Positions 1,485-53,922 of a stretch of 64,000 nt of DNA are shown here, one piece after another. The notes under the pieces are model-generated. The model was not told where the DNA came from, did not search any database, and saw nothing but the letters and a program-made list of their open reading frames with translations. The position numbers and the translations under genes are program-made. Source of the stretch: Candidatus Omnitrophota bacterium. Its GTDB lineage: Bacteria; Omnitrophota; Gorgyraeia; Duberdicusellales; 4484-171. Every line of letters starts with the position of its first letter. Position 1 is the first letter of the stretch. The stretch is taken from positions 128,001 through 192,000 of the forward strand of contig JAIPGM010000003.1 in the NCBI GenBank assembly GCA_021735655.1, read 5' to 3'.

Positions 1485-2339
1485 ATGATTAAAAAATCAA
1501 TATTATTAATTTTCACAACTGGTTTCGTTTTTTTTGCTCAAGCCGAAGTGGTTGTTTTTAAAAATGGCAAAGTTATTGAAGGGGAAATAACCGAGCGAAC
1601 TTCGCAATATTTAAAAATTGAGCTTAGTGGCATATCAATAAAATATTATCTTGAAACGATTGAAAGCATTGATGGTGAGAAAATTTCTGATCTTGGGCTT
1701 AGTAAGGAAGGCGTAGAATTAGGCGCTAAGGTTAAGCAAGATAGAGTAATCAGTGAGACTTGGCGCAAGCATTATGCCCAGGCTGAGCAATATCTTGAGA
1801 ATCGTCAATACGAACAGGCAATATTGGAGTTTAATGAGGTTTTGAAAGAAGACCCTGGAGCATATGAGGCTTATACTGGCATAGGTTTTGCTAACATTCA
1901 GCTAGGTAAGTATGAAGAAGCTATAGCTAACTTTAAAAAGGCTATAGAAATAAATTCTGAATATGTTCAAGCTTATGATAATATCGGAGTTGTTTATTCA
2001 TTTTTACGCCGCTATCGTGAAGCTTTGCCTTATTTTGATAAAGCCATAAGTATAGATCCAGAATTTGTCACTGCTTACAATAATCTTGCATCTACCTATC
2101 TTTTTCTGGGTCAGTATCAAGAAGCGGTTATCTATTATCAGAAAGCTTTTCAAATTGACCCTCAAAATGCCGACTCTGCTCGTAGCCTTGGTGTGGCCTA
2201 TAATGATTTGGGTAAGGCAAAAGAAGCCAAGGAATATCTTGAGAAAGCAATAGAGCTCTATAAGGCTCAGGGTGACTATCATGGTGTGCAAAAAGCAGAG
2301 GACCAACTCAAAAACATTCCTAAAGATTCTCTTAAATGA
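1485..2339 (+). CDS. TPR-repeat protein with signal peptide
   Basis: Signal peptide. Repeated A..Y/N.G..Y…G.Y.EA…F.KA 34-aa TPR units through aa 100-260. Confidence 0.7.
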   Translation: MIKKSILLIFTTGFVFFAQAEVVVFKNGKVIEGEITERTSQYLKIELSGISIKYYLETIESIDGEKISDLGLSKEGVELGAKVKQDRVISETWRKHYAQAEQYLENRQYEQAILEFNEVLKEDPGAYEAYTGIGFANIQLGKYEEAIANFKKAIEINSEYVQAYDNIGVVYSFLRRYREALPYFDKAISIDPEFVTAYNNLASTYLFLGQYQEAVIYYQKAFQIDPQNADSARSLGVAYNDLGKAKEAKEYLEKAIELYKAQGDYHGVQKAEDQLKNIPKDSLK

Positions 2340-3487
2340 AAGCTTATAAAATTCTGCTCACAGCCTGTATATTCCTGTTTATTTTTCTCTGTTTCTTTCA
2401 TTATTTTTCTCAGAGGCCTCTTTGGGGAGATGAGAAGTTCGTTCTCGATAACATCAGAGACAGATCATTTAAACAACTCTTCGGAGTACTTAAAGACAGC
2501 CAGGCTTTTCCTCGAGTTTATTTAGGGATAGTTCAATCATTTTCAAAAGTGTTTCAGTATCATGTTTTGTCGTTACGTTTTTTACCATTTCTTTGTATGC
2601 TGTCGGCATTTTTTATTTGGAAGAGAGTGTATCGTCAAGTCCTAGATAGTCGTTGGCTGGCGTTATTAACCTTATCTTCTTTGAGTAGTATTTATTATTT
2701 TAGTTATTATGCGGCGGAATTAAAGCCTTACTCTATGGATGTATTGGTAGTAGCTATATTTTGTCTTTATTTTGTTTATCAAAAAAAACTGGACTCTAAA
2801 GGCCTTTCAAAAAAGTTTATTGTTGCAACTTTACTTTTACCGATTACCCTTTTCTTTTCCTATGCTAGTTTTTTAGTTTTTTGGATTGTAATTTATAATT
2901 TTTTATTCGTTGTTAAAAGAAGTCAAAAAATACTCTATCTTTTAATGATCTATTCTGCACTTTGTTTTTTATTTGGAATTTCGACATATTGGATTGATTT
3001 GAGACATGGCTATTCAACTCCCGGGCTCATATCTTATTGGAATGATTATTTTGTTTGCACTGATTCGGCCTATTGTTTTTTTAAATCCTTTGGTGAAGGT
3101 TTAAGGAAACTCGCTACTTGGTGGTTTGGTAATGTCGATTTTTTAAAGAGAAGTGCTTCTTTCGTCATACCTTTTTTTACAATTTCTTTATTTGTCTATG
3201 GTTTTAAATCTTTCAAAAGCAATAGCTGTCGACTTTTCAGTCTGGATTCTGTTGGTTTGGCTATTTTCCTTGAGTTGTTAGTTTTGGGAATTCTAAAAAA
3301 GTATCCTTTTACTGGAGAAAGGGTAACTTTATTCTTTGCTCCCTTTGTTTTTTATTTTATTATTAAAGGTATCAGCTCACTTAAAAAAATAAAAATTCTA
3401 TACCGATTTTTCGTTGTTTCTTACCTTGGTCTTATTTTAGGCTGTGGCCTGAACTCGATTTTAACTTATTTAAAGCTTTATAACTGA
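2336..3487 (+). CDS. polytopic membrane protein, possible GT-C-type (polyprenyl-phosphate-sugar dependent) glycosyltransferase
   Basis: About 10 hydrophobic helices. 4-nt overlap with the upstream gene. Immediately upstream of a Dpm1/GtrB-like GT2. No diagnostic motif, so function is inferred from context only. Confidence 0.4.
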   Translation: MKAYKILLTACIFLFIFLCFFHYFSQRPLWGDEKFVLDNIRDRSFKQLFGVLKDSQAFPRVYLGIVQSFSKVFQYHVLSLRFLPFLCMLSAFFIWKRVYRQVLDSRWLALLTLSSLSSIYYFSYYAAELKPYSMDVLVVAIFCLYFVYQKKLDSKGLSKKFIVATLLLPITLFFSYASFLVFWIVIYNFLFVVKRSQKILYLLMIYSALCFLFGISTYWIDLRHGYSTPGLISYWNDYFVCTDSAYCFFKSFGEGLRKLATWWFGNVDFLKRSASFVIPFFTISLFVYGFKSFKSNSCRLFSLDSVGLAIFLELLVLGILKKYPFTGERVTLFFAPFVFYFIIKGISSLKKIKILYRFFVVSYLGLILGCGLNSILTYLKLYN

Positions 3488-5052: not shown

Positions 5053-5616
5053 TTGGATAGAAACAGAGCAAGATTATTTGAACTGGTAGTATTACTGGTT
5101 GTTGTTGGAATTTTAGCGGCAGCAGCTTTTTTTAATGCTTTTAGTGTTGTTGAGAAGGCTAAGATTTCTAAAATGGCGGTTGAGGTCAAAGCTTTAAAGA
5201 CAGCTTGGTATTCTTTTTACTCTGATTGCGGGTATTTTCCTACTGAAAATGATTATAAAGATAAAGGGGTTTATTCACATAGTGAAGTCGGGCCATTGAT
5301 GAAAGATACAGATATCACTAAGGATGTTCTAAGCAGAAGCAGTTGGAATGGCCCTTACTATAAAGGTAAGTGTCGTTCGCCATGGCTTGCGCCTTACTTA
5401 TATGATAATGACAACAACAACGTATACGATCCAGTTATTGGAACTAATCCTTATCGAGGGACTAATATCGGTATATCAGAATTAGATTTTAATGGAGATG
5501 TAGAAAAGATAGTTCCGGCGATGGATGAAATAATTGATGATGGAAATTCTTCAACCGGAAGCCTTAGATATACTCCTAATAAGCGAGTTTTTTATTTGAT
5601 TCATAATAATTATTAA
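5053..5616 (+). CDS. type IV pilin-like protein with degenerate prepilin N-terminus (paralog of 38717..39310)
   Basis: TTG start with AGGGGGG RBS. N-terminal hydrophobic helix carries a conserved Glu at the pilin +5-equivalent position, but the G|F cleavage site is replaced (…RA|RLFE…). Shares NAF..(I/V)EKAK(I/V)S…KA(L/Y)KTA.YS.Y(S/A)D.G, W(N/D)GPY and C-terminal DDG…G with the second pilin. Confidence 0.55.
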   Translation: MDRNRARLFELVVLLVVVGILAAAAFFNAFSVVEKAKISKMAVEVKALKTAWYSFYSDCGYFPTENDYKDKGVYSHSEVGPLMKDTDITKDVLSRSSWNGPYYKGKCRSPWLAPYLYDNDNNNVYDPVIGTNPYRGTNIGISELDFNGDVEKIVPAMDEIIDDGNSSTGSLRYTPNKRVFYLIHNNY

Positions 5617-38609: not shown

Positions 38610-38716
38610 TTGGTTATATTATTATGATAAAATGGCAACAATAGAATAAATAATTTAAGCAATTAGGTAGTTCGTCTGTTAATTGTTAGATATAAAATAA
38701 AGAAATGAGGAGAAAA

Positions 38717-39310
38717 ATGAAAAAAGTATTTACCTTGATCGAACTAATTGTAGTCATCGCTATCATCGCAATTTTAGCTGCTATCATTGCTCCCAATGCC
38801 TTTAAGGCCATTGAAAAAGCGAAGGTATCTGAAGCAATTGGAGATTTTAAAGCATATAAAACCGCGGCCTATAGTTTATATGCTGATACTGGTAAATGGG
38901 TTATGGAGGGTGCGGGTATTGAGTCTACTCCTGCTGGTGTATGTTGTTTTTTATTCTTGGAATCCGATAATAATGATTTATCTGTAGACCTTACTGGCTG
39001 GGTTGGTTGGGATGGACCATACATTGAGAAAATTAAATCAGAGCACCCTTGGGGAGGTTGGTATGCTTTTCAAAGTTGGGACGCTGGTAGAGGCCCAGAG
39101 GTAGATATGTGGGTTGATTTCGAAGATGATTGTTATCAAATTCCTAAAGATTGGGGAAACGGTGGCTGTCCTGTGCCATTAAAGGCTCAACTGAAAATTG
39201 ACAGCATGGTTGATGACGGGGATCTTACGAATGGAAGTATCTTAGATGGCCCATCTACAAATCAGGTAGAAGGCGATCTAAGTTGGATTTTGGTTTGGGA
39301 TGCTTTATAG
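38717..39310 (+). CDS. type IV pilin / pseudopilin (prepilin-type N-terminal methylation domain), non-canonical Val at -1
   Basis: GAGGAG RBS then MKKV|FTLIELIVVIAIIAILAAII. The FTLIE class III signal is present but the residue before Phe is Val (gta), not Gly. Paralog of 5053..5616. An upstream in-frame ATG at 38705 is unlikely because it lies within the RBS. Confidence 0.7.
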   Translation: MKKVFTLIELIVVIAIIAILAAIIAPNAFKAIEKAKVSEAIGDFKAYKTAAYSLYADTGKWVMEGAGIESTPAGVCCFLFLESDNNDLSVDLTGWVGWDGPYIEKIKSEHPWGGWYAFQSWDAGRGPEVDMWVDFEDDCYQIPKDWGNGGCPVPLKAQLKIDSMVDDGDLTNGSILDGPSTNQVEGDLSWILVWDAL

Positions 39311-48810: not shown

Positions 48811-49887
48811 ATGGATTTTAAAAATATTTTAGAGTTGATGATTGAGAAAAGCGCTACCGATATTTTCTTGCGAGTAGGTAGTCCTTTACGTGGCAGGATT
48901 AATACTGAAGTTGAAGTCCTCAGGGAAGATAGATTTACTTTTGATGAAATTAAACAGATTATCGAAATGATTACTAGGGAGCGAGACCGGGAAAGGTTAG
49001 AGAAACACCGAGGTTGCGAATTTACTTATTGGTATCGAGAGTATTGGCGTTTTCGGGTCGGTATATTTTATCAACGAAACACTCCGGCCTTGGTCGTGCG
49101 TAAAATTGACTTAAGAATACCTTCATTTCTAGAACTTAATTTGCCTTCGGCGGTGTTAGAAAATTTCTGCACCGAGCGAAGAGGGTTGATTTTGCTTACC
49201 GGTATTACCGGAAGTGGTAAATCAACAACGATCGCCAGCATGATTCAATTTATCAATAATAACTATGGGCGTCATATACTCACGGTTGAGGAACCGGTCG
49301 AATTTACTTTTCAGGATGACAAATCAGTGGTTAATCAAAGGGAGATTGGAACTGATGTTGAGAGTTATCATGATGCTCTCAGGCAGTTTGCTTTACATTC
49401 ACCGGACGTTATGTATATTGGTAATATCCTTGATGCTGAAACATGTCATGCGGCACTCACTGCCGCTGAAACCGGAGTTTTGGTTTTGTCTACGCTTCAT
49501 ACGGTGAATGCTACTTCTACTATAGAGAGGATTGTGAACTTTTTCCATCCTCATCAGCATGCCTTTGTTATGAATCAGCTTTCTTTTCTGCTCAAAGGAG
49601 TTCTTTCTCAGCGCTTGATTCCTCGTGCTGACAATTTGGGAATGATTCCAGCCTATGAAGTTATGACTCTTAGCCCATCGGTATCCCGACTTATAAAGGA
49701 GAACAAAATTTGGGAAATTCCTAAATATATTGCTTCTGGTGAGCATTACGGAATGATGAGTTTTCAACAATGTTTGTTGAAATTTGTCGAGGAAGGAAAA
49801 GTAACTGCAGATCATGCCTTACAGTTTTCCGATACCCGCGAAGAGTTAGAGCTGCTAATGCGTAATAAGGGATTAATAAAGGATTAA
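48811..49887 (+). CDS. pilT: type IV pilus retraction ATPase PilT
   Basis: Walker A GITGSGKST, Asp/His boxes and AIRNLIRE-like LIKENKI motif typical of PilT/PilU. 358 aa. Confidence 0.85.
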   Translation: MDFKNILELMIEKSATDIFLRVGSPLRGRINTEVEVLREDRFTFDEIKQIIEMITRERDRERLEKHRGCEFTYWYREYWRFRVGIFYQRNTPALVVRKIDLRIPSFLELNLPSAVLENFCTERRGLILLTGITGSGKSTTIASMIQFINNNYGRHILTVEEPVEFTFQDDKSVVNQREIGTDVESYHDALRQFALHSPDVMYIGNILDAETCHAALTAAETGVLVLSTLHTVNATSTIERIVNFFHPHQHAFVMNQLSFLLKGVLSQRLIPRADNLGMIPAYEVMTLSPSVSRLIKENKIWEIPKYIASGEHYGMMSFQQCLLKFVEEGKVTADHALQFSDTREELELLMRNKGLIKD

Positions 49888-49970
49888 AATAGGCAAGGCT
49901 TATCTAAAATATCGAGAAATAATTGCCATCAGTACCCTTCTTGCAATTATTATAAGAAAAGACTAGATTT

Positions 49971-51071
49971 ATGACTCAGGATATAAAAAAAAGAATTCAA
50001 CAGCTAGAGAAAGATCTTGTTCGTTTTGGGCAAATTTTAAAGATAGAGGATAAAAAGGGGCTAATTGAAAAATTGCAACTTAAGATGGCTCAACCCGGAT
50101 TTTGGAATGATCAAAAGATAGCAGCTAGCGTGGTTGATGAGCTAAAAGTTATTAAAAGTGACGTCGATGACTGGCAGGATTTATATAGTGCTTTTAAAAA
50201 TGTAGCCGAGATTGAAAGTCTAAACGATTCGGCTTTTGAAAAGGATATCATTAAGGAGCTGAGTAAACTAGAAGTTAACGCTGAGCAGTTTAAGCTCAAA
50301 ATTTTGTTTTCTGGTAAGTTTGACAATAATAATGCAATAGTAGAAATTAATTCCGGAGCCGGCGGAACTGAAGCTTGTGATTGGGCTTCAATGATTTTTA
50401 GGATGTATTGTCGCTGGGCCGAGGACAAAGGTTTTAAGCTCAAAGTTTTGGATGAATTGAGAGGAGACGAGGCCGGTTTAAAGAGCGTTACTTTTTTTAT
50501 CCAGGGAATTAGGGCCTATGGCCTTTTGCGTTCTGAACGGGGGGTACATCGCTTAGTAAGGATTTCTCCTTTTGATTCTAATAAACGTCGTCATACTTCA
50601 TTTGCTTCGGTAGATGTTCTTCCTGAGATAAAAGATGATGTTGAAATTGAAATAAGGCCTGAAGAGTTAAAAATAGATACCTATCGGGCGTCCGGTGCTG
50701 GCGGCCAGCACGTAAATGTTACTGATTCGGCAGTGCGGATTACTCATATGCCTAGTGGTATTGTGGTGGCTTGTCAAAATGAGCGTTCGCAACATCAAAA
50801 TAAACAGGCTGCTTTTGGAGTGTTAAAAGCAAAGTTATATGAGCGCAAAGAAGAGGAGAATCGAAAGGAGCTGGAAGAAGTTTCCGGAATCAAACAAAGA
50901 ATAGAGTGGGGTTCCCAGATTCGTTCTTATGTGTTACATCCTTATCTTTTAGTCAAGGATCATCGAACTAACTTAGAGGTTCATAATGCTAAGAACGTTC
51001 TTGAAGGTAAATTAGATGATTTTATTTATGCTTATTTAAGATTCATGAGTGAGGTTAAGAAAAGTGCTTAA
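49971..51071 (+). CDS. prfB: peptide chain release factor 2 (uninterrupted, no programmed +1 frameshift)
   Basis: SPF tripeptide motif (RISPFDS) and GGQ motif (SGAGGQHVN). Single continuous 366-codon ORF. Confidence 0.9.
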   Translation: MTQDIKKRIQQLEKDLVRFGQILKIEDKKGLIEKLQLKMAQPGFWNDQKIAASVVDELKVIKSDVDDWQDLYSAFKNVAEIESLNDSAFEKDIIKELSKLEVNAEQFKLKILFSGKFDNNNAIVEINSGAGGTEACDWASMIFRMYCRWAEDKGFKLKVLDELRGDEAGLKSVTFFIQGIRAYGLLRSERGVHRLVRISPFDSNKRRHTSFASVDVLPEIKDDVEIEIRPEELKIDTYRASGAGGQHVNVTDSAVRITHMPSGIVVACQNERSQHQNKQAAFGVLKAKLYERKEEENRKELEEVSGIKQRIEWGSQIRSYVLHPYLLVKDHRTNLEVHNAKNVLEGKLDDFIYAYLRFMSEVKKSA

Positions 51072-53922
51072 AAATATAATTTTTAAAAATTGTCAAAGAA
51101 AAATTAATAAGCTTAAGCCCCAGGTAGAGATTTTGTTAAACAAAGAGATTCCTACTCCGGCTTTAAAGATTATTACTAGTTTTGCGCCGCTGGTGGTTAA
51201 GGTTAACTCTTATGAGCATGAGCTCGAATCAAAGCCCAAAGAGTTTTTTAAGGGCAAATCTAATGAATTTAAAAGCCTGATTAAAGCAAGGATTGCCAAA
51301 GCTTCAGTTGATGAGCATAAAGATATAACCGAAGCTGTTTTAGACGAGATTTTGCCATTTTATTTTGCTATGGTTAGAGAGGCAGCTAAACGAACAGTTA
51401 AAATGCGTCACTTTGACGTACAGATTCTCGGTGGAATTATTTTGCATAAAAATAAAATAGCTGAAATGGTGACTGGTGAGGGAAAGACTCTTGTTGCAAC
51501 TTTGGCAGCATCTTTAAATGCTCTTTTAGGCCAAGGGGTGCATATTGTTACGGTTAATGATTATCTAGCTAAGCGCGACCGAGAATGGATGGGGCCAATT
51601 TATGAATATTTAGGGTTTTCGGTGGGAGTTATTCAACAAGATATGTCTCCGCTTGAGCGAAAAGTAGCCTATGCTTGTGATCTTACTTATGGAACTAACA
51701 ATGAGTTTGGGTTTGATTATCTTCGTGATAACATGACAACTTCTCCTCAAAGCATGGTTCAGCGTAAGCATTGTTACGCAATTGTTGATGAGGTTGATTC
51801 GATCTTAATTGATGAAGCCAGAACCCCGTTGATTATTTCTGGTCCGGCCGAGAGTTATATTCAGAAATACTATCTTGCTGATCGAGCCGTCCGCCAGATT
51901 AAGGTTAAGGTTATTATTCAAAGGTATGATAATACTAAGGAAGGAACAGTTACTATAAAAAATAGAGATGGCTCTCAGGTCGTAATGACACCGCAAGAGT
52001 TGGAGGATCATTACGAGGCGATCATCGAGGAAAAGACCCATCAGGCCTATTTTACTCCTGCTGGAGAAAAGCATTGCGAGAAATTATTAGGGATAAAGAG
52101 TATTTCCGATGAATCCCCGGATAAGCTTTCTAATCCTTGGTCACATTATCTTACACAATCTTTAAGGGCGCATCATCTTTTCGCTGCCGATAAAGAGTAT
52201 ATTGTAAAAGAGGGCAAGGTTTTAATAGTTGATGAGTTTACTGGAAGGCTTATGTCTGGTCGGCGTTGGTCAGACGGTCTTCATCAGGCTGTTGAGGCTA
52301 AGGAGAATTTGAAGATACAAGAGGAATCACAAACTCTGGCTACGATAACTCTTCAGAATTATTTTCGAATGTATGATAAATTAGCCGGGATGACCGGAAC
52401 AGCTTACACCGAAGCCAATGAGTTTAATCATATTTATAAATTAGATGTTGTAGTTATACCAACTAATCGTCCGCTCCTCAGGGTTAATCATGCTGATAGA
52501 ATTTATAAGACCAAGAAAGGTAAATTTGCTGCCGTAGTTAGCGAAGTAGAAGAGCTTTCTAAGTTAAAACGCCCAGTTTTGGTTGGGACAACATCAATCG
52601 ACGATTCAGAGCAGCTTTCTTTTTTGCTTAATAAAAGCGGTGTCACTCATAGTATACTTAATGCAAAATATCATGAAAAAGAGGCCCGTATTGTTGCTCA
52701 GGCTGGACGATTAGCCCAAGTGACTATTGCGACTAATATGGCTGGCCGAGGAACCGATATTGTTTTAGGTGGCAATCTTGATTACTTTATAAAAGATATT
52801 CTGGCTAAAAATAATATATCTTTAGAAGATGAATCTTATCAAGAGGAGTATTCTCGGCTTTATCAGCAATATAAGGAAAAGTTTAAAAAAGATCATGATC
52901 AGGTTGTAGCTTTAGGTGGAGTGCATATTATTGGAACTCAACGCCATGAGTCAAGAAGAATAGATAACCAGTTACGGGGAAGATCAGGAAGACAAGGCGA
53001 TCCCGGATCATCTCGTTTTTACGTTTCCCTAGAAGATGATTTAATGCGTCTTTTTGGGTCCGAAAAAATATACGGGTTAATGGATACTCTTGGTTTTCCC
53101 GAAGACCAGCCAATAGAGCACACAATTATCAATCATTCTTTAGCCGTAGCTCAAAAGAGAGTTGAAGGGCATAACTTTGAAATACGTAAACAGCTATTGC
53201 AGTATGATAATATAATGAATAAGCAGCGGGAAGTTGTCTATCGTCAGAGAAGGGAGATTTTAGAGAGTAGCGATATGCGCGAGGAGATCTTTTTAATGCT
53301 TGATGATACAATTGATAAGAATGTACCGTTATACTTTCAAGAGGAAAGCGATATTTCCGGTCTCATCCAATGGGTAAAATCAAAGTTTGACTTAGAGCTA
53401 GAGAATGAAGAGATTGCTAAATTAGCGGTTGAAAAAATAGCTGAATTTGTAAAGGCTCAATTAAAAGAGGGCTATCATCAGAAAGAGGCTAAGTCTGTAG
53501 TTGATCAGATGCGCCAAATGGAGAGGGCGGCCAGTCTTTGGATAGTTGACTCGCGTTGGAAAGAGCATCTTTTAGTGATGGATCACCTTCGGGAAGGAAT
53601 ACATTTGAGAGCTCATGCTCATGTAGATCCTTTGGTTGAGTATCAACGAGAGTCATATCTTGCTTTTCAAGATATGATTTCAACTATCAAGGAGGGGATA
53701 GTTGAAATGGTTTTTAAAGCTAAAGTTAAACTGCTTCCTGAAGATGTCGGTGTTTTTTCAGAATCACCCAAAGATTTTATTCATTCTGAATACACACCCT
53801 TAGAGAATAAGTCTTCTAAGGAAAAGGCCGCTCCGCCTAAAGTAGGAGAAAAAAGGGTTGGTCGTAACGAACCCTGTCCTTGTGGGAGTGGAAAGAAATA
53901 TAAGAAGTGTTGTGGAGTCTAA
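51049..53922 (+). CDS. secA: preprotein translocase ATPase SecA
   Basis: DEAD-like motor motifs (MVTGEGKTL, DEVDSILIDEARTPLIISG), and C-terminal zinc finger CPCGSGKKYKKCCG. GTG start overlaps the prfB end. Confidence 0.95.
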   Translation: MRLRKVLKNIIFKNCQRKINKLKPQVEILLNKEIPTPALKIITSFAPLVVKVNSYEHELESKPKEFFKGKSNEFKSLIKARIAKASVDEHKDITEAVLDEILPFYFAMVREAAKRTVKMRHFDVQILGGIILHKNKIAEMVTGEGKTLVATLAASLNALLGQGVHIVTVNDYLAKRDREWMGPIYEYLGFSVGVIQQDMSPLERKVAYACDLTYGTNNEFGFDYLRDNMTTSPQSMVQRKHCYAIVDEVDSILIDEARTPLIISGPAESYIQKYYLADRAVRQIKVKVIIQRYDNTKEGTVTIKNRDGSQVVMTPQELEDHYEAIIEEKTHQAYFTPAGEKHCEKLLGIKSISDESPDKLSNPWSHYLTQSLRAHHLFAADKEYIVKEGKVLIVDEFTGRLMSGRRWSDGLHQAVEAKENLKIQEESQTLATITLQNYFRMYDKLAGMTGTAYTEANEFNHIYKLDVVVIPTNRPLLRVNHADRIYKTKKGKFAAVVSEVEELSKLKRPVLVGTTSIDDSEQLSFLLNKSGVTHSILNAKYHEKEARIVAQAGRLAQVTIATNMAGRGTDIVLGGNLDYFIKDILAKNNISLEDESYQEEYSRLYQQYKEKFKKDHDQVVALGGVHIIGTQRHESRRIDNQLRGRSGRQGDPGSSRFYVSLEDDLMRLFGSEKIYGLMDTLGFPEDQPIEHTIINHSLAVAQKRVEGHNFEIRKQLLQYDNIMNKQREVVYRQRREILESSDMREEIFLMLDDTIDKNVPLYFQEESDISGLIQWVKSKFDLELENEEIAKLAVEKIAEFVKAQLKEGYHQKEAKSVVDQMRQMERAASLWIVDSRWKEHLLVMDHLREGIHLRAHAHVDPLVEYQRESYLAFQDMISTIKEGIVEMVFKAKVKLLPEDVGVFSESPKDFIHSEYTPLENKSSKEKAAPPKVGEKRVGRNEPCPCGSGKKYKKCCGV

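Follow-up and report, generated by a model that had tools for sequence, protein, structure and literature searches.

Two genes in the 64-kb window, by which we mean the whole stretch of DNA analysed here, from an uncultured member of the Omnitrophota, code for paralogous proteins with a predicted type IV pilin fold, and neither has Gly at position -1 of the prepilin-peptidase cleavage site. The reading that we favour, with a probability of roughly 0.6, is that both proteins, called here ORF A and ORF B, belong to an expansion of GspG-like pilins in which the requirement at -1 has been relaxed to small residues, and that ORF B would be cleaved by the prepilin peptidase PilD, ORF A remaining uncleaved. 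A residue other than Gly at -1 is a habit of this lineage, which mostly has Ser there, and it points neither to an error nor to a defunct gene. In ORF B, Val at -1 is a recurrent minority variant in an intact gene under purifying selection. The features discussed are listed in Table 1.

Table 1. Coordinates of the features discussed, in window positions, or in positions of the named locus for the PilD homologues
Feature	Position	Strand	Remarks
ORF A, divergent GspG-like type IV pilin-fold protein	5053..5616	+	187 aa, TTG start
Leader of ORF A, MDRNR	5053..5067	+	Arg5 is -1; gap-free with P0122 and the family alignment
alpha1N of ORF A, degenerate, ARLFELVVLLVVVGILAAAAFFNAF	5068..5142	+	Ala+1, Arg+2
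Shine-Dalgarno-like GAGGAG	38707..38712	+	4 nt 5' of the ATG at 38717, read from the sequence
ORF B, type IV pilin of expanded Omnitrophota family	38717..39310	+	197 aa
Leader of ORF B, MKKV	38717..38728	+	Val(-1) codon GTA 38726-38728
alpha1N of ORF B, canonical, FTLIELIVVIAIIAILAAIIAPNAF	38729..38803	+	Phe+1; Glu+5 at 38741-38743
PilT-like T2SSE-family ATPase	48811..49887	+	Pfam T2SSE E=1.6e-35, 358 aa
PilD homologue, Ser-type locus	L007 7745-8566		phmmer
PilD homologue, Ser-type locus	L009 2617-3555		phmmer
PilD homologue, Ser-type locus	L026 568-1425		phmmer

Two paralogous pilin-fold genes

A pair of paralogous pilin-like proteins with a set of common motifs had been proposed in the preliminary description, and this was borne out by BLASTP (28% identity over 170 columns, E=1e-11), by the alignment and by the pilin-fold models. 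The shared blocks are NAF, (I/V)EKAK(I/V)S, KA.KTA.YS.Y.D.G, W(N/D)GPY and a C-terminal DDG..GS. Each of the two full-length ORFs gave a confident model of a type IV pilin fold, in which a hydrophobic alpha1N of ~21 residues belongs to a helix of ~50 residues that is combined with a beta-sheet head. The absence of Gly at -1 from both proteins was upheld as well, the residue being Val (gta) in ORF B and Arg in ORF A. The C-terminal DDG was also considered as a calcium site of the GspG type and was discarded, as the Pfam T2SSG match ends at residue 121 and gives no support for homology in the loop.

ORF A is recorded at NCBI as MCF7907901 (K9L86_03360), in a MAG of Candidatus Omnitrophica, and labelled hypothetical. 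Its TTG start aligns with an ATG at the same codon in the 78%-identical P0123, and no other start codon was found 5' of the TTG. P0122, which is 61% identical and also 187 aa long, aligns with ORF A ungapped (MIKKRFTLVE against MDRNRARLFE), and in the family alignment, where Leu+3 and Glu+5 do not vary, these columns are occupied by Leu8 and Glu10 of ORF A. From this register the site of ORF A reads MDRNR|ARLFE, with Arg at -1. The loss of Gly and the retention of Glu+5 (codon 5080-5082) had been noticed before and both stand, while the cut previously drawn at RA|RLFE was one residue out of register. The site of P0122 is MIKKR|FTLVE, in which FTLVE is kept and -1 is still Arg; Phe+1 and Thr+2 are missing from ORF A and its closest relative. 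The subclade is rare, with three known sequences, all of which carry Arg at -1.

With respect to the class III signature, ORF A has a short, charged, hydrophilic leader, lacks a tiny residue at -1 and carries Ala+1 instead of Phe or Met. Arg occupies both -1 and +2, yet the hydrophobic helix is intact and Glu+5 is present. ORF A matches members of the family at E of about 1e-14 with 24-31% identity, as a divergent member; it passed Pfam T2SSG marginally (22.4 bits for a cutoff of 21) and did not match PF07963 N_methyl or TIGR02532. The AF2 model (pLDDT 89.7) consists of a helix over residues 3-59 and a beta head, and in a Foldseek search of the PDB with this model the top 16 matches were pilins or pseudopilins (16/16).

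The neighbours of ORF A are a glycosyltransferase-like ORF (recognized by eye, without Pfam), a DUF2007 gene, an NMT1-type binding protein and a histidine kinase, and a comparison of the ORF A and P0122 loci found no neighbouring genes in common. Several side observations were made on its relatives. P0123 (L002:786-1275) ends at ..YLYDNDK and is followed by unrelated AT-rich DNA, which is either genuine (a truncation or an insertion) or the chimeric end of a contig. The gene 3' of P0122 (L001:1045-1593) encodes a membrane segment and then ..LLLTAIAVPNFLRARTLAQESA, a stretch resembling a pilin alpha1 that is internal and not N-terminal. The N-terminus of P0147, also of this family, is likewise degenerate (..GSGQEKKELIFVGIAILILLAIVVPYGMRAIEKAQ), and P0146, of 1600 aa, contains five separate stretches matching ORF A.

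ORF B (MCF7907933) bears the NCBI label prepilin-type N-terminal cleavage/methylation domain-containing protein. An alternative start at 38705 would give 201 aa; the 197-aa form is the NCBI call, and its ATG is favoured by the GAGGAG sequence listed in Table 1. The gene begins with atg aaa aaa gta ttt acc ttg atc gaa, i.e. MKKV|FTLIE, a short charged leader in which Val takes the place of a tiny Gly or Ala at -1, with both Phe+1 and Glu+5 present. It scored above the cutoff for PF07963 N_methyl (26.8 vs 21.2 bits) and for TIGR02532 (22.4 vs 16.3 bits), and its alpha1N is near-invariant among 59 aligned family members.

Between 36058 and 45378 of the window, leuS is followed by ORF B, and then by its further neighbours DUF4234, DUF2752, comEA and comEC, a TPR/YfiO (BamD-like) gene and lptE. 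P0003, 66% identical to ORF B, is one of 4-5 pilin paralogues arranged in tandem (L084 5059-8594). A competence-pilus reading of ORF B was dropped, because the leuS/comEA/comEC position is absent at P0003.

The residue at -1 in the family and in the lineage

A search with ORF B resulted in 1089 matches, the best non-self ones at E=2e-79 with 65-66% identity, and all those with a named source were from Omnitrophica. To judge by these matches, the family is a large GspG-like pilin expansion nearly restricted to Omnitrophota. Its signature is FTLIELIVVIAIIAILAAIIAPNAF-x-AIEKAK ... GWDGPY ... DDG, and ORF B is a full-length member.

We counted the -1 residues in the best 118 of the 1089 ORF B homologues, namely those carrying the motif. 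Ser was found in 58, Gly in 36, Ala in 8, Val in 6 and Thr in 3, the rest being Phe (2), Asn (2), Cys (1), His (1) and Leu (1), and the small residues (S, G, A, V, T, C) together make up ~94%. In these same 118 sequences alpha1N is almost invariant (FTLIELIVVIAIIAILAAIIAPNAF), including Phe+1, Thr+2 and Glu+5; Lys or Arg is present at -2 in 92/118 and the leader has 3-4 residues in 91/118. A more diverse search of representatives, seeded with ORF A, gave Gly 74, Ser 25, Ala 13 and Thr 6 at -1. The near-invariance of Gly, on which the preliminary description had relied, is not supported in this lineage, where the order is Ser > Gly > Ala > Val/Thr.

Pilin-like N-termini were then scanned at 80 loci of GTDB species representatives. 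Gly was present at -1 in 110/126 (87%) of the ORFs from other phyla (Firmicutes, Variovorax, Gemmatimonadota and others) and in 38/99 (38%) of the Omnitrophota-type ORFs (Fisher p=9e-15), the latter including several Ser-type MAGs that are labelled 'uncultured Planctomycetia' and were counted as Omnitrophota solely for carrying the pilin family. Val was seen in 0/126 of the pilin-like ORFs of other phyla and recurs in Ser-type genomes. Among the latter, the tally was Ser 13, Gly 6 and Ala 2, together with Thr, Val, Tyr and His, in JAHKAJ, and Ser in 11/11 in CAZFML; JAQUWY, CAZVRU and JAIPHU are further examples. JAQTZX, JBAZKL and JAKLGJ are Omnitrophota genomes of a Gly/Ala type, so that the Ser-type trait is not phylum-wide. 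In the Ser-type genomes, minor-pilin-like genes in operon-like clusters have leaders ending in S, T, A, V or Y, such as RKS|FSLVEV, KST|FTLLEM and RKV|FTLVEV. The open-access literature yielded no account of the -1 position in Omnitrophota, whether occupied by Ser, Val or another residue, nor of a bacterial pilin repertoire dominated by Ser.

The other pilins of the genome itself had been named as a possible test, in which Gly throughout would have marked the two genes as aberrant copies. The result was the opposite, with Gly in 0/4 of the paralogues assigned to the MAG: P0073, P0054, P0005 and P0016 all read (K/Q)KS|FTLIE, with Ser at -1. They were assigned to the same MAG by inference, because the NCBI accessions are consecutive and increase from the longer to the shorter contigs: MCF7907404 (341,261-bp contig), MCF7907694 (322,746), MCF7907901 and MCF7907933 (278,835), MCF7908551 (69,921) and MCF7908723 (56,791). 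P0005 is also present in the sequencing run of ORF B.

These results bear on the explanation that GTA stands in error for GGA or GGT, through sequencing or assembly, or that both genes are decaying, pseudogenised copies. GTA is indeed one substitution away from GGA, three canonical-motif positions are lost in ORF A, and P0123, a close relative of ORF A, is truncated in its contig. However, the ORF B protein is identical in the independent assembly that Logan provides for the same run (SRR12088349), Val(-1) recurs in 6/118 homologues and in other genomes, and the -1 codon is TCA in P0005 and TCC in P0003, Ser and not Gly being the residue of the same-MAG paralogues. The dN/dS values are 0.15 and 0.14 for ORF A (vs P0122 and P0123) and 0.13 and 0.11 for ORF B (vs P0005 and P0003), and the degenerate N-terminus of ORF A is itself conserved in P0123 (pN 0.12, pS 0.40 over codons 2-30). 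By these measures both genes, full length and with confident models as they are, are maintained by selection. Error and decay, both raised earlier as alternatives, are largely refuted, and we reject them as very improbable.

Prepilin peptidase and proposed processing

A motif scan and phmmer found no PilD, PilB or further pilin in the 64-kb window, and phmmer found no aroE or aroC homologue in it either. The PilD of the MAG itself is absent from the best 120 PilD homologues (P0266 belongs to another assembly). Three homologues were located at Ser-type loci (Table 1), with a conserved aroE-pilD-aroC order and at 1-9 kb upstream of arrays of Ser(-1) pilins; the array at L026 includes a Val(-1) paralogue. 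These three proteins have both catalytic Asp motifs and a CxxC..CxxC N-domain. The best 120 homologues (P0259-P0378) are 61-100% identical, those with a named source being from Omnitrophota, and all (120/120) contain Peptidase_A24 and A24_N_bact according to Pfam, as well as two CxxC pairs. On the basis of these conserved domains, CxxC pairs and catalytic motifs, the lineage apparently retains a functional, bifunctional PilD.

At the second catalytic Asp, 120/120 of these homologues read GLGD(V/I)DF, where GxGDxK is usual elsewhere, and the three aligned proteins contain an insertion of ~20 residues (..YLKxRKKESIEGExESL) ahead of it. An association of GLGDVDF with the -1 preference was weighed and abandoned, as Firmicute PilDs from Gly-type loci likewise vary at the Lys of GxGDxK.

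The PilT-like ATPase is the sole pilus-machinery gene among the annotated window ORFs, the Pfam run having covered those on either side of ~9-36 kb, and it adjoins neither ORF A nor ORF B. Within 48811-53922 it is directly followed by a release-factor gene (PCRF/RF-1) and then by secA, and it is the only pilus gene of this neighbourhood. At 52-1458 and 2336-3484 of the window, four ORFs (112-383 aa) had no Pfam match at E<=0.001. Type IVa machinery has been reported in most Omnitrophota (PMC10066038).

A peptidase of relaxed specificity and an uncleaved membrane anchor had been put forward as two possible explanations for both proteins, and each of them fits one protein best. For ORF B this is the relaxed peptidase, given the prevalence of residues other than Gly across the family, in the four paralogues assigned to the MAG and in other pilin classes of related genomes, and given the intact PilD of those genomes; a peptidase tolerant of small -1 residues is the best, if unproven, reading. 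For ORF A it is the anchor, because the -1 residue is Arg, and this pilin-fold protein probably stays uncut and anchored in the membrane.

The class III signal peptide of the lineage is very short, typically M-K-K-x|FTLIELIVVIAIIAILAAIIAPNAF, and its -1 position would have shifted from an obligate Gly to small residues, most commonly Ser and then Gly, Ala, Val and Thr. ORF B and its Ser(-1) relatives would be inserted by SRP/Sec with the N-terminus in and the K-rich leader in the cytoplasm. PilD, with an S1 pocket that admits small side chains, would cut ORF B after Val-1 and, being bifunctional, N-methylate Phe+1, and the mature subunit would then be open to the type IVa pilus machinery. ORF A, as suggested by three sequences, would remain unprocessed, as a bitopic inner-membrane protein whose pilin-like head is periplasmic, and selection would keep it for a non-filament role.

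A rival explanation concerns the cleavage after Val. PilD might take Ser, Gly and Ala but not Val, leaving ORF B uncleaved and retained in the membrane, perhaps with a non-polymerising or regulatory function, much like ORF A. In the mutagenesis of P. aeruginosa PilA by Strom and Lory in 1991, Ala or Ser at -1 was reportedly cleaved in part and larger residues were not, so that Val(-1) may be cut poorly or not at all. Val is beta-branched and accounts for only ~5% of the family members, and published descriptions permit just a tiny Gly or Ala (PMC7212644; PMC4471445). The sporadic bulky residues at -1 (Y, H, F, L, N) also suggest that some paralogues are perhaps non-substrates, which so large a family may tolerate. 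Against this, ORF B has a perfect FTLIELIVVIAIIAILAAIIAPNAF and is under purifying selection as its Ser(-1) relatives are, and the recurrence of Val in Ser-type genomes, with 0/126 in other phyla, points to a lineage-specific tolerance. We consider a PilD that rejects Val rather unlikely; the sequence of the enzyme does not disclose its specificity, and cleavage after Val may equal that after Ser or fall short of it.

Another explanation is that no member without Gly is processed, and that the family lies outside pilus biology, as signal-anchored periplasmic or surface proteins with alpha1N as the anchor. The paralogues are scattered or in tandem, apart from the pilus machinery, and they are very numerous; Planctomycetes have comparably expanded sets of proteins with a prepilin motif, whose role is obscure (DUF1559/TIGR04294). 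The near-invariance of Phe+1, Thr+2, Glu+5 and the whole alpha1N nevertheless exceeds what an anchor needs and matches a filament assembly interface. The ~94% of small -1 residues indicates that the site is still constrained, which argues against mere anchoring, and PilD is conserved together with its methyltransferase domain and lies near Ser(-1) arrays. This makes the explanation improbable, and processing of ORF B by a tolerant PilD is preferred.

A bolder version of that preferred reading can be proposed, in which a clade of Omnitrophota has re-tuned the PilD-substrate pair as a whole: the enzyme would accept any small residue before the cut (Ser > Gly > Ala > Val/Thr), behind a leader of 3-4 residues, and Arg(-1) proteins such as ORF A would be deliberately uncleavable and retained in the membrane. 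The PilD concerned would be the one with the invariant GLGD(V/I)DF and the insertion of ~20 residues before the second catalytic Asp. We put this forward tentatively, at somewhat below even odds. If true, it would overturn the 'Gly/Ala at -1' rule of prediction tools, and a single genome could then have dozens of pilin paralogues.

Significance and comparison with known systems

Pilin finders and annotation rules, e.g. 'GFxxxE' of TIGR02532, presuppose Gly or Ala at -1, and a lineage dominated by Ser with recurrent Val and Thr would be under-predicted by such rules. The variation in Omnitrophota would also represent a natural experiment on the specificity of prepilin peptidases, for which structural explanations are scarce in the case of the bacterial enzymes. 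Omnitrophota are ultra-small and probably host-dependent, and type IV pili have been proposed to serve in their attachment (PMC10066038), so that the question of which pilin paralogues are processable bears on host contact. The effect is modest in kind, since a single motif position varies and archaeal and Firmicute precedents exist.

At -1, bacterial type IV pilins have been described as having 'invariably Gly' (PMC4471445) or 'Gly or Ala' (PMC7212644). ORF A and ORF B share with them the short hydrophilic leader, Glu+5, the hydrophobic alpha1N of ~21 residues and the lollipop fold, and ORF B alone shares Phe+1. They differ from them by Val(-1) in ORF B, Arg(-1) in ORF A and Ser in most relatives, and ORF A further by the lack of Phe+1 and of an N_methyl match.

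The closest named sequence families are the GspG major pseudopilins (PF08334, TIGR01710; EpsG, PulG, XcpT). EpsG and PulG were among the top structural matches, some paralogues are named GspG by NCBI, and we take the GW(D/N)GPY of the family to resemble the 'WGxPY' motif of GspG. In contrast, the TIGR01710 cutoff of 88.85 bits was not reached by ORF A (41.5) or ORF B (45.2), no gsp operon (GspD/E/F) lies beside either gene, and both proteins exceed GspG by 50-70 residues and have additional elements in the head. GspG is usually single, whereas here there are dozens of paralogues per genome.

The ComG pilins of Firmicutes have a conserved Ala at -1 and a dedicated peptidase, ComC (PMC7212644). 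They provide a precedent for a whole bacterial pilin set with a conserved tiny -1 residue other than Gly, but this residue is Ala and not Ser or Val, and the pilin family and fold are different. The comEA and comEC genes adjoin ORF B, in a position that is not conserved in a relative.

In archaea, Gly(-1) has many exceptions, positions -2 and -3 contribute through basic residues, and PibD accepts substitutions near the cleavage site (PMC4471445, PMC4307647). The leaders of Omnitrophota resemble the substrates of PibD, FlaK and EppA in being rich in K/R at -2 and -3. The enzyme differs in that it is a bifunctional PilD of the bacterial type with an A24_N methyltransferase domain, and, unlike the archaeal class III substrates, the Omnitrophota pilins keep the bacterial FTLIE/Glu+5 signature.
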